Virus record (IMG/VR): IMGVR_UViG_3300048502_000040
Location: 23,901-87,900 of that record
DNA length: 64,000 nucleotides
DNA from: a virus
Reading direction: 5' to 3' (one strand)
Part shown: piece after piece, positions 23,152 to 28,289 of the stretch
Layout of the letters: each line of letters opens with the position of its first letter
Numbering within the stretch: position 1 is the first letter of the stretch
The notes under the pieces: generated by a model
The model's database searches: none
What the model was told of the DNA's origin: nothing
Seen by the model: the letters and a program-made list of their open reading frames with translations, nothing else
Made by a program: the position numbers and the translations under genes

Positions 23152-25014
23152 TTATTTTACTGGACATACTCCGCCCTCACATTCCATCCCGTCAAGTTCT
23201 CCCTGACCTATATCTTCCAAGTTCAGGGGTTTGATCTTGCTGGACAACTTGTGGTACTGCTCCTCAGTGATGGCTTCCTTTGGGGCTTGCACGAAGCCAT
23301 GATCGCTATGACACAAAAAGCTAATAGACTTGAGATACTGAAGATTCTCGGACAGCCAAACTTTCAACTTAGGGATATCTTCTCGCTTGTAGTAAACCGT
23401 AACAGATACGGCTTGATCTGCCCAATGTTTCTGAGCCATCTTGAGAACGTCAAGCTGTTTCCACGTATCCCACTGCTCATCCGCTACTGGCTGCCCGGCT
23501 GGGGTCTCGATGTAGAAGTCCGCAACTAAAGTCTGAGGATCAATACCTCCTCCAAACTTCTGAACAGGCTCTACATAATGCCCGGCTTCCCTCAGCTTAG
23601 GCACGAGCGCGTCATTGGATGCGAACCTAACCCTCTGAATGAAGTGCCTGCTGTAGGCTGCGTGGATACCCTCGTAGCCCATGCAGTCAAGAACTTTAGA
23701 CAGGGTTCCAGACGGCTTCACTACTGTAGTCCGCTTGCTCTTAGGTATTCCTAGCTCCTTGCTGTACCGTTCGTCCTCATCTTGGATAGCAGCGTAGGCT
23801 TGGTCTAAAACTTCCGGTACGAATAGAGGCGATGCCAAGCACCCGGTTATACTTGTGCCTGTACGTCTGTTTCTCTGGATCACATCCTGTGATACCTTAT
23901 GGTGGTAATGCTCCATCGTCACACGCTTGGCGTAACGGTGCATAAGTCGGGCGGTATCAAAGAACTCTTGAGGACTTTCAAGATTACATAGAGCAATCTC
24001 AGTCAGGTTACAAGGCTCTCCGTTTTCTAAAGTTGCCTCGGCGCACGGGTTCACTCCGATAGCATTGTCGGGCTTCATCTCCCCCATGCGTCCGTACTTT
24101 TGCATGTTGGATCGGTTCACTAACCCGAAAGGTTCTCCCTGTTCATAAGTCTTCCAAAACAGGGGATGAAGGTCTTCTGTATCGTCGCACACAACACTAT
24201 AGTTAGCGCAACTTCTGTGCGAAGGCAGTACACCTAAATCCCATCTCTTAGCCCGAAGATAATCCTTATCCCAAGCATCACCTAGAATGATGATAGCCGA
24301 GCGTCGGACGTTTCCAGCGACAACCATTTCCCCAGTGGCAGTAATAATGTCCGCAGCATCTAAGGTGCGCACATGCCTTCCTTCTCGGTTATTTAGAATT
24401 GCACACAGGTTGGAAACGAATTTTATAAGCGGGATAGGACCAGACGCAGTACCTCCAAAACCAACTATGGATTCCCCGTAACCGCGTACGCAAACCGTCG
24501 AGTAACTGAATGACTTTCCAGTAACAAAGAAGCTCTCTAGTACACGCCGAGTTAGTTCACACCATCCCTCTCGACTGTCCGGTACGATGAAGTCAGCGTC
24601 TTTAGTCCCTTTATGGACAATGACGACATCCTTCTTGACCCTTGGAAGCTTGCTGGTGAAACGGTGCTCAACGCTTAGACCCACGCCGCCTCCGAGCATA
24701 AGAAGGTCTTGTGCTATTACGAAATTGTTCCAATCATCTGCGGTAAAGAACCAACAGTTGTTTAGAGCCGCCCCGCCAATTTTAGAATGAGAGGGTGAGC
24801 CGGACATCCATATACCACGTCCCGCTGCACACGCCTTGCGATCTTGTCCTAACCGTATAAGAGCCTTGATCTCTGACTCAGGTACGTTCTTTCCTTTTAC
24901 GTTGCCCATTACAACACGTTCGATGGTTTGATCCCAATTCTCTAAGAACCCGTTATCTTGCCTGTTATACGTTCTACGGGTTACCACGCGGGCAAGGTTG
25001 CTCCAATCTTTCAC
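23152..25014 (-). CDS. nrdJ: class II (B12-dependent) ribonucleoside-triphosphate reductase
   Basis: ALNNCWF, GNVRRSA, NPCAE, EPCNLTEI, VKPSGTLS, C-terminal CEGGVCPVK. Confidence 0.93.
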   Translation of the reverse strand: MKDWSNLARVVTRRTYNRQDNGFLENWDQTIERVVMGNVKGKNVPESEIKALIRLGQDRKACAAGRGIWMSGSPSHSKIGGAALNNCWFFTADDWNNFVIAQDLLMLGGGVGLSVEHRFTSKLPRVKKDVVIVHKGTKDADFIVPDSREGWCELTRRVLESFFVTGKSFSYSTVCVRGYGESIVGFGGTASGPIPLIKFVSNLCAILNNREGRHVRTLDAADIITATGEMVVAGNVRRSAIIILGDAWDKDYLRAKRWDLGVLPSHRSCANYSVVCDDTEDLHPLFWKTYEQGEPFGLVNRSNMQKYGRMGEMKPDNAIGVNPCAEATLENGEPCNLTEIALCNLESPQEFFDTARLMHRYAKRVTMEHYHHKVSQDVIQRNRRTGTSITGCLASPLFVPEVLDQAYAAIQDEDERYSKELGIPKSKRTTVVKPSGTLSKVLDCMGYEGIHAAYSRHFIQRVRFASNDALVPKLREAGHYVEPVQKFGGGIDPQTLVADFYIETPAGQPVADEQWDTWKQLDVLKMAQKHWADQAVSVTVYYKREDIPKLKVWLSENLQYLKSISFLCHSDHGFVQAPKEAITEEQYHKLSSKIKPLNLEDIGQGELDGMECEGGVCPVK

Positions 25015-25047
25015 TTCAGTGCGCCTCTTTCTTACAACAGAGCCTTG

Positions 25048-25716
25048 TCATTCTGCTCTCTTTCTTACCTTGCTTCTTAGTTCTTTTAGCCTCTCTACGA
25101 AGCGTGTACCTCGTAGGCTGTAAAAGAACCTGTACTTGGGCTTTCGAGGTATGCGTTTTATGTCGGACTCATTCAATCCCAGTGCTCTCATACGGTCTGC
25201 CGTTTGGTTGTATCTGGCAAACTTGTGATCCCCCAAGTAGTAATCAACTCTGGGAGATTTGCGCTCTTCATCCTGCATTCCGTCAGGCGACCAGTTGCCT
25301 GCTTTGTAGATAGTACCGCTGTGTCCCATACTGGGGTCTGCGAAGCTAACTATACCTTCGACGTGCGGAAACTGCTTCTTCACTAGCATAATGGTTTTGG
25401 CAACAAACCAAGTCTCCGAGTTCTTTGGCATCTCGTCCAGCAACCATAACCTCGCCAACTCCCAACAAACACACCCATACCGTTTATTTATCTGGAGAGA
25501 TGGCATGGAGTAGATGCAGGTTCCTACACATTCTTCTCCACGAAACAGACCGAAAACGCAAAGAACCACCCCCGGCCATTTGCGGAGATAATGCTCTTTC
25601 ACCATCCAGTCCACTTGCTCACGGGATACTTGGCGAACTTGTAGAGTATTGAATTGGAGCGGAGGAGTCGGGTTCGAACCGCTACCGTCAGCCGGGATAG
25701 GCTGCTGTACTACCAT
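25048..25716 (-). CDS. mom: Mom-like DNA adenine modification enzyme (GNAT-related); first 21 codons overlap the tRNA
   Basis: HYL..., ELARLWL, NSETWF, SFADPSMGHSGTIYKAGNW. Start AUG lies in the tRNA D-loop with GGAGG 7 nt upstream. Confidence 0.8.
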   Translation of the reverse strand: MVVQQPIPADGSGSNPTPPLQFNTLQVRQVSREQVDWMVKEHYLRKWPGVVLCVFGLFRGEECVGTCIYSMPSLQINKRYGCVCWELARLWLLDEMPKNSETWFVAKTIMLVKKQFPHVEGIVSFADPSMGHSGTIYKAGNWSPDGMQDEERKSPRVDYYLGDHKFARYNQTADRMRALGLNESDIKRIPRKPKYRFFYSLRGTRFVERLKELRSKVRKRAE

Positions 25717-25730
25717 TGTACGACCTCCGC
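25655..25730 (-). tRNA. non-canonical tRNA-Gly-like (76 nt)
   Basis: GCGGAGG UC GUAC AAUGGUA GUAC A GCAGC CUAUCCCG GCUGA CGGU AGCGG UUCGAAC CCGACU CCUCCGC U CCA. Perfect 7-bp acceptor with G1-C72, C2-G71, G3-C70, U73 and encoded CCA; 8-nt anticodon loop containing UCC/CCC; bulged A in T-stem. Confidence 0.85.
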
Positions 25731-25736
25731 AAGTCT

Positions 25737-25766
25737 ATTATAACACATGCCGAACGAGAATGGCAA
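25737..25766 (-). promoter_or_regulatory. strong extended -10 sigma70 promoter for tRNA/mom
   Basis: TTGCCA-18 nt-(TG-n-)TATAAT, ending 7 nt before tRNA G1; the -10 overlaps the TAA of the upstream gene. Confidence 0.8.
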
Positions 25767-26568
25767 CTGCGCCACCGAGTCCCACCCCTACCCCGTACAG
25801 GAAGCTCTTGAGCTTTCCTTTACGGGCTGATGCTTTTTCCGCAGTCAGTTCTTTCGCGTCCGCTGTCTTCTGATCCGTGAGTTCGGTTCCCAGTCCGTCG
25901 ATCTGCTGGGCCTGATCCGTAATCACGGTGTTTGCCTTTGCGAGTTCCGCTTGGCCGTTACTGACTTGTGTTTGTGCGTCGGCGAGATTCTGCTTGAGCA
26001 CCGGCACCTGTTCAAGAGCTACCACCGTGCCGATAGCCGCAGCAGGGTCTACCGTTATCCCTGCGGTCGTGGCCGTGAGATCGCCGGGCTGTGCGTCGAT
26101 GAGGGATGCCCATCGGTTGCCGAGATCGGGCATCGGCAGAGTCTTGTCGGTAGCCTGCTGCTGTTGGAGGACAATCGTGCGGCTGGCGCTGGCCGCAACA
26201 AGCTGGGCATTCTGCTGAGACAACGCCGCAACAGTTGCCTTGTAGCTAGTAGCGTCCTGCTGGGCCTGCTGTGCCAGCGCCACGTCCTTGTCATGCTGCA
26301 CAACGAGTGTCTGGGCCGCGATGTTGGCCTGTTGCTTGTCACGATCCGCTACGACACTTAGATACTTGAAGCTGCCGAGTAACATGGCCAAGCTAATTAT
26401 CAGGGCCAAGATAATGCGCTCGTGAACCTTTAGCCACGACTCTGCCTTGGTCACGTCAGCCTTCGCTGTTGTCTCAATATTTTGAAACCCTTGGATTATA
26501 TTTGTTTGTGCTGTCTTCAAACCGGACGCAGCGGCTATCGTAGTTGTCGGTGTGGCTGTGGCGCTCAT
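25738..26568 (-). CDS. membrane-anchored coiled-coil protein, spanin(Rz)-like
   Basis: AAGGAG RBS, ATG 26568; TM segment IILALIISLAMLLGSF, Q/A-rich coiled coil, hydrophobic C-terminus. Confidence 0.55.
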   Translation of the reverse strand: MSATATPTTTIAAASGLKTAQTNIIQGFQNIETTAKADVTKAESWLKVHERIILALIISLAMLLGSFKYLSVVADRDKQQANIAAQTLVVQHDKDVALAQQAQQDATSYKATVAALSQQNAQLVAASASRTIVLQQQQATDKTLPMPDLGNRWASLIDAQPGDLTATTAGITVDPAAAIGTVVALEQVPVLKQNLADAQTQVSNGQAELAKANTVITDQAQQIDGLGTELTDQKTADAKELTAEKASARKGKLKSFLYGVGVGLGGAVAILVRHVL

Positions 26569-26599
26569 TGAAAAACTCCTTGTGTGTTTTAGTTCCAAG

Positions 26600-26683
26600 C
26601 TAGAACGAAATTGACACCCCCATCTTGACGAGCAAGACGAGGGTGGCGGCGATGATGAGGACGTACTTGTCAACCTTTGGCAT
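26600..26683 (-). CDS. 27-aa membrane peptide (not in ORF track)
   Basis: MPKVDKYVLIIAATLVLLVKMGVSISF*; single hydrophobic helix, overlaps upstream stop. Confidence 0.45.
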   Translation of the reverse strand: MPKVDKYVLIIAATLVLLVKMGVSISF

Positions 26684-27656: not shown

Positions 27657-27849
27657 CCTTCAGTACACCCGTTGTTCCTACCAGCTTTCCTTGCTGGCGT
27701 AGAAGGTCGTAGGCCAGCCACCGGACTTGCCGGGACAGGTGGTCTATCGAGTCGTTACTGTTGAGAAGCTCGATCAACTGCTTGTTGGTCGGCCCCTTGC
27801 ATCGGATGGCGTGTCGCGCCTCCGCTGTTAGTGAAACGATCTTGCTCAT
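27640..27849 (-). CDS. hypothetical protein
   Basis: ATGA overlap in operon. Confidence 0.55.
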   Translation of the reverse strand: MSKIVSLTAEARHAIRCKGPTNKQLIELLNSNDSIDHLSRQVRWLAYDLLRQQGKLVGTTGVLKDAARR

Positions 27850-28289
27850 GAAGCCTGCTTCTCTGCCCGCTTCTGCTTGATGATCGCACTCAGTTTGTCC
27901 AACTGCTTCTCCATGAAGTCGAGGTCGGCTTCGTCTTTTGGACGGTCATCAACCAACTTGTTCTTGGACTGTGCATCCAGCAGGATCGCGCAACATGCGA
28001 TGGCATGGCCGAGATGATGCACCTTGCTGTCGGTCGCCTGCTCCTGACCCTCGAACCAGCACTGAAGGTGGCGCTGTGCGGCGTCCACATAGATGCTGGC
28101 GACAACGGCTTTGTCCCGCCAGTTGTACGCGCCGTACTTCTCTGCCCCGTCCATCATTGCCATTGCGCCGTGGGCCACTGCGATGACAGGTAGTTTTGAA
28201 AGCGAGACCTTGGTGTTGCCTACGAGGTCTTTAGGATTGGTGGTGTCTGCTTTTGATCGCGGTACGATGGTTAGTGCTGTTTCTCCCAT
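27846..28289 (-). CDS. dATP/dGTP diphosphohydrolase (DUF5664-like)
   Basis: K..L..LP..A....M..GAEKYGAYNWR...YVDAAQRHL..W..G...DS..HHLGHAIA. Confidence 0.8.
   Translation of the reverse strand: MGETALTIVPRSKADTTNPKDLVGNTKVSLSKLPVIAVAHGAMAMMDGAEKYGAYNWRDKAVVASIYVDAAQRHLQCWFEGQEQATDSKVHHLGHAIACCAILLDAQSKNKLVDDRPKDEADLDFMEKQLDKLSAIIKQKRAEKQAS

Follow-up and report, generated by a model that had tools for sequence, protein, structure and literature searches.

The 64,000-nt stretch of DNA analysed here (the window) belongs to a virus record of 98,567 bp that is rated complete. Its minus strand carries a block of genes for nucleotide metabolism, encoding an exonuclease, an endonuclease VII, a MazZ-like dATP/dGTP diphosphohydrolase, an HNH nuclease, a small GNAT protein and a 311-aa protein, followed by a tRNA-like element, a Mom-family protein and a class II ribonucleotide reductase. 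The features at the junction between the tRNA-like element and the Mom-like gene are listed below, where tRNA position p corresponds to window coordinate 25731 - p.

25761..25766, minus strand: TTGCCA, the -35 hexamer of the promoter for tRNA and mom, within the 3'-terminal part of the preceding 311-aa open reading frame (ORF)
25737..25742, minus strand: -10 hexamer TATAAT, separated by 6 nt from tRNA position 1
25655..25730, minus strand: tRNA-Gly-like gene of 76 nt with encoded CCA (Rfam RF00005, 28.7 bits; our own model R1, 98.5 bits)
25724..25728, minus strand: GGAGG in the acceptor 5' strand, Shine-Dalgarno-like, 7 nt before an in-frame ATG (direct reading)
25693..25700, minus strand: anticodon loop CUAUCCCG of 8 nt, UCC with an extra A before it (direct reading)
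25666..25683, minus strand: T arm AGCGG-UUCGAAC-CCG(A)CU with a bulged A at 25668 (direct reading; a 1-nt insertion in the cmscan and R1 alignments)
25048..25716, minus strand: Mom-like GNAT ORF of 222 aa, with its ATG at 25716 in the tRNA D-loop (PF25680, phrog_1384, PDB 8bv8)

The ORF of the 311-aa protein (window 25738-26673, minus strand) extends into the -10 box of the promoter for the tRNA, where it stops, and gave no Pfam or PHROG match. The MazZ-like gene (window 27846-28289, minus strand; PF18909, 6e-25) is of a type tied to 2-aminoadenine genomes; the idea of a Z-genome that it raises was rejected, as the record holds no PurZ-like adenylosuccinate synthetase. Four ordinary tRNAs (Pro-TGG, Ala-TGC, Asn-GTT and Leu-GAG) are clustered elsewhere in the record, far from mom, and the Gly-like tRNA stands alone beside mom, apart from them. 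The phage record contains no synthetase (class II core) of its own. Outside the window, the same record carries a tmRNA-like gene (ARAGORN tmRNA*) with a 28-residue tag peptide (L004:525-939, plus strand, equivalent to G000:C1 ~2330-2744).

Direct reading of the tRNA-like gene gives an acceptor stem of GCGGAGG/CCUCCGC, a D arm of GUAC-AAUGGUA-GUAC with G18G19 present, an anticodon stem of G.A, C-G, A-U, G-C and C-G, a variable region of CGGU, and a 3' end made up of the discriminator U73 and the encoded CCA. The elbow nucleotides G18G19 and U55C56 are both kept. A canonical tRNA has a 7-nt anticodon loop in which U33 immediately precedes the anticodon, and a T-stem of five regular base pairs; the RNA departs from it in that an A stands between the U and UCC in an 8-nt loop and the 3' strand of the T-stem has six nucleotides instead of five. 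The loop shrinks to 6 nt (UAUCCC) if C-G closes, which is the version drawn by the minimum free energy (MFE) fold, and no purine occupies position '37', because the base after UCC is C. The preliminary description, which had listed the 8-nt or 6-nt loop, the missing purine at 37 and the bulged A in the T-stem, is correct in every detail; the strand, which it left unstated, is the minus strand (25730..25655).

ARAGORN, whose output had been named beforehand as a check, called no tRNA over the whole window, and Rfam at gathering thresholds gave no match for it. When searched in E-value mode, RF00005 reached 28.7 bits (E 4.5e-4), just below the gathering score of 29, in an alignment that contains the extra loop base and a one-base T-stem insertion. 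Single-sequence folding also yields the cloverleaf as the MFE structure, with a z-score of only -1.1, and is uninformative when taken alone.

Profile searches placed the product of the overlapping ORF in the Mom family. It matches PF25680 at 7.4e-31, with 107.8 bits against a cut-off of 27.1 and the domain spanning ~25105..25644, phrog_1384 ('Mom-like DNA modification protein') at 2e-34, and the crystal structure of Mu Mom (PDB 8bv8) at an E of 4e-11. With the chain numbering of 8bv8 equal to Mu numbering minus 9, as confirmed by H58/Y59, the equivalents of Mu Mom H58, Y59, R111, D149 and Y159 are kept, S124 is changed to T and R151 to S. As R151 is essential in Mu Mom, the chemistry of the window protein may differ. 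The promoter in front of the tRNA, TTGCCA-18-TATAAT, has 11 of 12 matches, an 18-nt spacer and a TG before the -10 hexamer, and is the only sigma-70-like site in 25000..26000.

Relatives of the RNA were collected by pattern scans that used tRNA features only, namely GCG...CGC-U-CCA, the T-loop, and any base other than T in the place between CU and UCC; T-stem spacing was unconstrained only in the first scan, that of IMG/VR. The scans returned 8 loci from IMG/VR, 25 from JGI metagenomes and two from GTDB genomes, the last being a Dehalococcoidales MAG (L211) and a Chloroflexota MAG (L212). Together with the window, these 35 loci represent 23 distinct tRNAs, 22 of which are beyond the window copy. 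Conservation of the identity nucleotides, of UAUCC and, in the two larger scans, of the bulge is partly ascertainment, since the search patterns imposed them; with the spacing left free in IMG/VR, the extra T-stem base was present in 8/8 loci.

In an alignment of 24 sequences that was fitted to the model, 97.2% of the cloverleaf cells are paired, compared with 70.8% in shuffles and 38-53% with slid partners, and 0 of 500 shuffles reached the observed pairing. Both sides have changed in 14 of the 21 pairs, and all four helices are supported. As 22 further distinct homologues keep the cloverleaf through such compensatory changes, the 76-nt RNA is a real, conserved tRNA-like element, far beyond chance.

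The anticodon loop of the family occurs in two forms. Form A, to which the window copy belongs, has a 5-bp stem and an 8-nt loop, CUAUCCNG, and form B, found in 11 of 23 members, has a canonical 7-nt loop, UAUCCA[U/A/G] (UAUCCAN), with an A at position 33. Because the family has both sizes, the trait common to its members is the A directly 5' of UCC and not the size of the loop. U33 is near-universal in tRNAs, and losing this position should impair decoding; it is displaced or replaced by A in every family member. All members likewise carry one additional nucleotide on the 3' side of the T-stem, the bulge being required by the patterns in the two larger scans.

The locus L006 was found through relatives of the window Mom protein, to which its own Mom protein is 33% identical. 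Its RNA, reported by ARAGORN as 'tRNA-???' with the anticodon 'atcc', lies immediately 5' of Mom. It shares the acceptor stem of the window copy, has the loop CUAUCCGG and carries one additional base on the 3' side of the T-stem; compensatory changes set its D and anticodon stems apart from those of the window. Overall, both deformities recur across Mom proteins with only ~20-35% identity. A promoter also recurs at the same place, with TTGACT-18-TATTAT lying 7 nt upstream of the tRNA in L006, TTGACT-17-TACATT 7 nt upstream in L179 and TTGACA-17-TATAGT 6 nt upstream in L181, so that a promoter 6-7 nt upstream of the tRNA is kept in four lineages. An exact 16-mer of the anticodon arm gave 80 matches in IMG/VR, all of them chance matches in unrelated phage genes and none tRNA-like, and a nucleotide search of the 3.5 kb around the tRNA against GenBank phages gave no match.

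When the Mom profile was applied after the tRNA-only scans, a Mom-family gene was found on the same strand beside or around at least 18 of the 23 tRNAs. Twelve of these immediately precede Mom; in four (5 loci) the Mom ORF extends across the tRNA and ends 16-34 nt past it, and in two Mom lies 1.1-1.9 kb downstream of the tRNA. Contig ends cut three further tRNAs, two of which show weak partial Mom matches where expected. In one of the two remaining sequences (L208) the tRNA lies within a DruA-like ORF (PF14236, 1e-14) and not a Mom gene, and in the other (L188) there is no Mom within reach. The latter (L188:7177-7252, minus strand) is the sole member with ample flanks and no Mom nearby, and its D-loop has no in-frame ATG or GTG.

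Seen from the side of the enzyme, the association is rare. Among 91 Mom loci fetched by protein similarity, the RNA was found within 2 kb in one (L006) and in none of the other 90, as judged by ARAGORN and model R1; ARAGORN reported only the L006 copy and unrelated tRNAs, in agreement with R1. The tRNA is thus a minority accessory of Mom genes. Corynebacterium phage Darwin, which carries the best GenBank match to the window Mom, has tightly packed genes with no tRNA feature annotated beside Mom. In a tree of Mom proteins the tRNA-linked members are clustered, with 5 label changes against 16.8 after shuffling; as this is a quick tree with long, mostly deep branches, it shows clustering only and not the number of origins of the link.

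Several members depart from the arrangement seen in the window. In L186, L189, L195, L196 and L199 the final ~25 codons of the Mom ORF are tRNA sequence, a second architecture in which excision of the tRNA would deprive the mom mRNA of its stop codon. In L208 the tRNA (304-379) sits in the 5' end of the DruA-like ORF (L208:267-1025, plus strand), DruA being a protein of the Druantia defence system; profile comparison of this ORF with Mom gave a probability of 3%. DruA-like proteins may also be tRNA-Gly dependent. A different RNA, a tRNA-Gly(UCC) with a normal 7-nt loop, lies 2.7 kb upstream of a Mom-like gene on an AT-rich marine phage contig (L015:174-247, plus strand). It lacks G18G19 and has the T-loop UUUGAUU, which is reminiscent of the staphylococcal non-proteinogenic tRNA-Gly, and Rfam reported nothing for it at E<=1.

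The Mom-like ORF of the window shares its first 21 codons with the tRNA, and its Pfam domain starts 11 nt past the tRNA end. The only upstream start candidate for the window Mom is the ATG at 25716 in the D-loop. There is no ATG, GTG or TTG between the CCA of the tRNA (25655) and the conserved Mom N-terminus (~25644), and the first downstream candidate, GTG at 25614, would cost ~13 conserved Mom residues. Similarly, no usable start follows the tRNA in L179, L181, L197, L206 and L211, and GGAGG-N7-ATG/GTG is also found in L006, L179, L181 and L200. In all 12 loci with the tRNA upstream of Mom, the Mom frame takes the same phase of the tRNA and is open through the whole of it.

The codons encoded by the tRNA show flat variability by codon position (22/16/21 and 6/11/11), and their synonymous to non-synonymous ratios are similar in all three frames. 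These two observations indicate that the overlap evolves as RNA, without protein-level constraint, and they speak neither for nor against its translation. As the Mom frame is open through the tRNA and starts are missing after it, a single transcript may be either tRNA or mRNA. We tentatively suggest that a transcript starting from tRNA position 1, with GGAGG and the D-loop AUG as the Mom ribosome-binding site, could either be folded and cut into a glycine-carrying tRNA or be translated, by way of the tRNA sequence, into Mom.

The RNA family itself is not new. McMurdie et al. (2011) described a conserved 76-bp tRNA-Gly-like 'pseudo-tRNA' with the anticodon 'DCC' in the ssrA genomic islands of Dehalococcoides, lying within the initial 150 bp of a mom homologue, and assigned it no function (PMC3146451). 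The window copy is likewise a 76-nt tRNA-Gly-like fold inside the 5' end of a Mom ORF. With a model derived from the copies in the window and L006, L211 scores 61.3 bits and L212 45.2 bits; these two are MAG copies and not the 16 published ones, and in the Dehalococcoidales MAG (L211) Mom (5e-63) and ParB adjoin the tRNA. The window copy differs from the published elements in that it lies in a 98.6-kb virus record and not in an integrative island, and in that its anticodon loop is of the 8-nt form and its position 1 adjoins a sigma-70 promoter. Moreover, the 2011 paper predates the discovery that Mom needs Gly-tRNA.

The tRNA dependence of Mom has also been published. Mu Mom transfers glycine from Gly-tRNA-Gly to adenine in DNA, and an on-base rearrangement then gives N6-carbamoylmethyl-adenine; the enzyme accepts each of the three glycine isoacceptors of E. 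coli and rejects Gly-tRNA-Ala (Silva et al., Nat Commun 2026, PMC13219725). The window enzyme belongs to the same Pfam family, PF25680, and keeps most of the active-site residues, though not R151, and its proposed chemistry is the same glycyl transfer from charged tRNA-Gly to adenine N6. However, Mu encodes no tRNA and uses any host isoacceptor, whereas the window has its own deformed tRNA-Gly fused to the gene. Neither PMC13219725 nor its preprint, as judged by term searches, mentions a tRNA that a phage encodes next to Mom homologues.

A precedent for the donor logic comes from Staphylococcus aureus, where the non-proteinogenic tRNA-Gly(UCC) species NP1, NP2 and NEW are charged by normal GlyRS, bind EF-Tu weakly and feed FemXAB, which are tRNA-dependent GNAT-fold transferases; they have altered T-stem base pairs and lack G18G19 (PMC4574755). 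By analogy, the window tRNA would work like that family, but it is not a member of it. It keeps G18G19 and U55C56, its T-stem is bulged and its U33 position is disrupted, and its neighbour is the DNA modifier Mom and not a peptidoglycan transferase.

Taking together the anatomy, the covariation-backed conservation, the promoter and the Mom linkage observed here, we propose that the RNA is probably a non-proteinogenic tRNA-Gly, encoded by the phage and dedicated to supplying glycyl groups to the Mom-like GNAT on the same transcript. Transcription from the strong promoter would begin at or within one base of tRNA position 1, and the RNA would fold into a cloverleaf with the encoded CCA. The A directly 5' of UCC, in the 8-nt loop here and as A33 in the 7-nt relatives, is expected to impair decoding, and the extra nucleotide in the T-stem 3' strand, in the helix that EF-Tu reads, is expected to weaken EF-Tu binding. 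Kept out of translation in this way, the charged pool would be free for Mom. The Mom-like enzyme, judging from its homology to Mu Mom, would move the glycine to adenine N6 of the phage DNA and thereby produce a restriction-resistant base.

Charging of the RNA by the host GlyRS can be argued from its nucleotides. The determinants of GlyRS are G1:C72, C2:G71, C35, C36 and U73, with R4:Y69 (PMC10464925). By direct reading the window tRNA has the whole bacterial set (G1:C72, C2:G71, U73, C35, C36, purine 4 and pyrimidine 69), which together with the elbow nucleotides makes charging plausible, provided that the 8-nt loop holds C35 and C36 in the right position. In a docking model the GlyRS beta subunit contacts the T-stem (PMC10464925), and the T-stem bulge could conceivably impair GlyRS as well. 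As for EF-Tu, its sequence-specific reading of tRNAs rests on three T-stem base pairs (PMC3239215); weaker binding may be expected, because the bulge sits in the helix that contains these pairs.

The client of the charged RNA is likely DNA hypermodification, given the fusion of the tRNA to a gene for a Mom-like DNA modifier, and a glycine carrier for DNA modification is the most likely role, because the Mom family takes glycine from charged tRNA-Gly. The preliminary description had proposed that the RNA is chargeable but kept off the ribosome and had pointed to peptidoglycan synthesis. The first part appears to be the best-supported reading, given the GlyRS identity set and the deformities conserved alongside a glycyl transferase gene; the peptidoglycan client gives way to Mom, the gene to which the RNA is fused. 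It is not evident why a private tRNA should be needed, since Mu Mom works with every host tRNA-Gly isoacceptor, and most Mom genes (90 of the 91 loci) manage without one.

A rival reading is a cis-acting leader, in which the cloverleaf mainly gates mom translation or is cleaved to inactivate the mRNA, with no role as an amino-acid donor. The only canonical Mom start in the window (ATG 25716) and GGAGG are both buried in the tRNA fold, and the frame open through the tRNA in 12/12 loci fits such a role. Mu mom itself is reportedly known for elaborate translational control, according to a review by Hattman. However, a regulatory hairpin needs no full cloverleaf, T-loop UUCGA, G18G19, U73, CCA or glycine identity pairs, all of which are kept, and an RNA that lies at the 3' end of mom in other loci, or 1-2 kb away in two, cannot gate initiation. 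A purely regulatory leader is thus unlikely, and the leader and donor roles are not mutually exclusive.

The dedicated-donor reading must also be set against a working decoder of glycine codons, for instance a replacement tRNA-Gly(UCC) that escapes a host anticodon nuclease through its altered anticodon loop, with the mom link being incidental. Phages often carry tRNAs, this one has four others, and the UCC and the GlyRS identity set are intact. Yet such a decoder would have to work with U33 displaced or replaced by A in every member and with a bulge in the helix read by EF-Tu. In at least 18 of 23 lineages the link is to Mom and not to tRNA clusters, and the ordinary tRNAs of this phage are clustered far off. 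We consider a decoder quite improbable.

A more specific version, put forward as an alternative in the preliminary description, is a sufD-type +1 frameshift suppressor that reads the quadruplet GGAU for the expression of some phage gene. In sufD, an extra base extends the anticodon (CCCC) of a tRNA-Gly, and the window RNA is likewise a tRNA-Gly with one extra anticodon-loop nucleotide; its loop has 8 nt, and ARAGORN assigns the four-base anticodon 'atcc' to L006. However, the extra A of the window lies 5' of UCC, and the T-stem defect argues against use on the ribosome. Moreover, about half of the relatives (the 11 of 23 with UAUCCAN) occupy the same niche with an ordinary 7-nt loop and A33; an expanded loop is therefore not what the family conserves, and quadruplet decoding is very unlikely. 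Finally, a decaying pseudo-tRNA or integration-site remnant, suggested by scores under the thresholds of standard tRNA finders and by the 'pseudo-tRNA' label that annotation pipelines give to the Dehalococcoides relatives (PMC3146451), is scarcely credible for a full-length RNA with CCA, strong covariation in four of four helices, a promoter conserved 6-7 nt upstream in four lineages and the same two deformities recurring at ~20-35% Mom identity; the covariation also contradicts the absence of a stable cloverleaf and of conservation that had been named in advance as grounds for giving up the non-proteinogenic reading.

If the dedicated-donor reading holds, mobile elements with a private glycine tRNA welded to mom would provide independent genomic support for a general dependence of Mom on tRNA-Gly. 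The use of charged tRNA by Mom for DNA hypermodification was reportedly established only in 2023-2026, and for host tRNAs only. In the literature searched we found nothing that links the two published observations by making a private, translation-disabled tRNA-Gly the donor of Mom, and the occurrence in a phage of the 8-nt loop with an abutting promoter appears to be unreported there. The tRNA appears crippled for translation, and it would be a second natural case of tRNAs diverted from the ribosome, after those of the staphylococcal Fem system, and apparently the first for DNA chemistry. It points to U33 and T-stem geometry as features of a tRNA that can be broken without loss of donor function, and it would account for the 'pseudo-tRNA' annotations in mom genes. 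It is also unusual for one sequence to be used twice in this way, as a tRNA and as part of the gene for the enzyme that the tRNA serves, and a bifunctional transcript, if true, would build in a partition between donor and enzyme. Should the DruA-like ORF of L208 prove tRNA-dependent too, the principle would extend to a Druantia defence protein. tRNA and enzyme together would also form a compact, portable module of two parts with which momylation could be tried in hosts whose tRNA-Gly may not fit.
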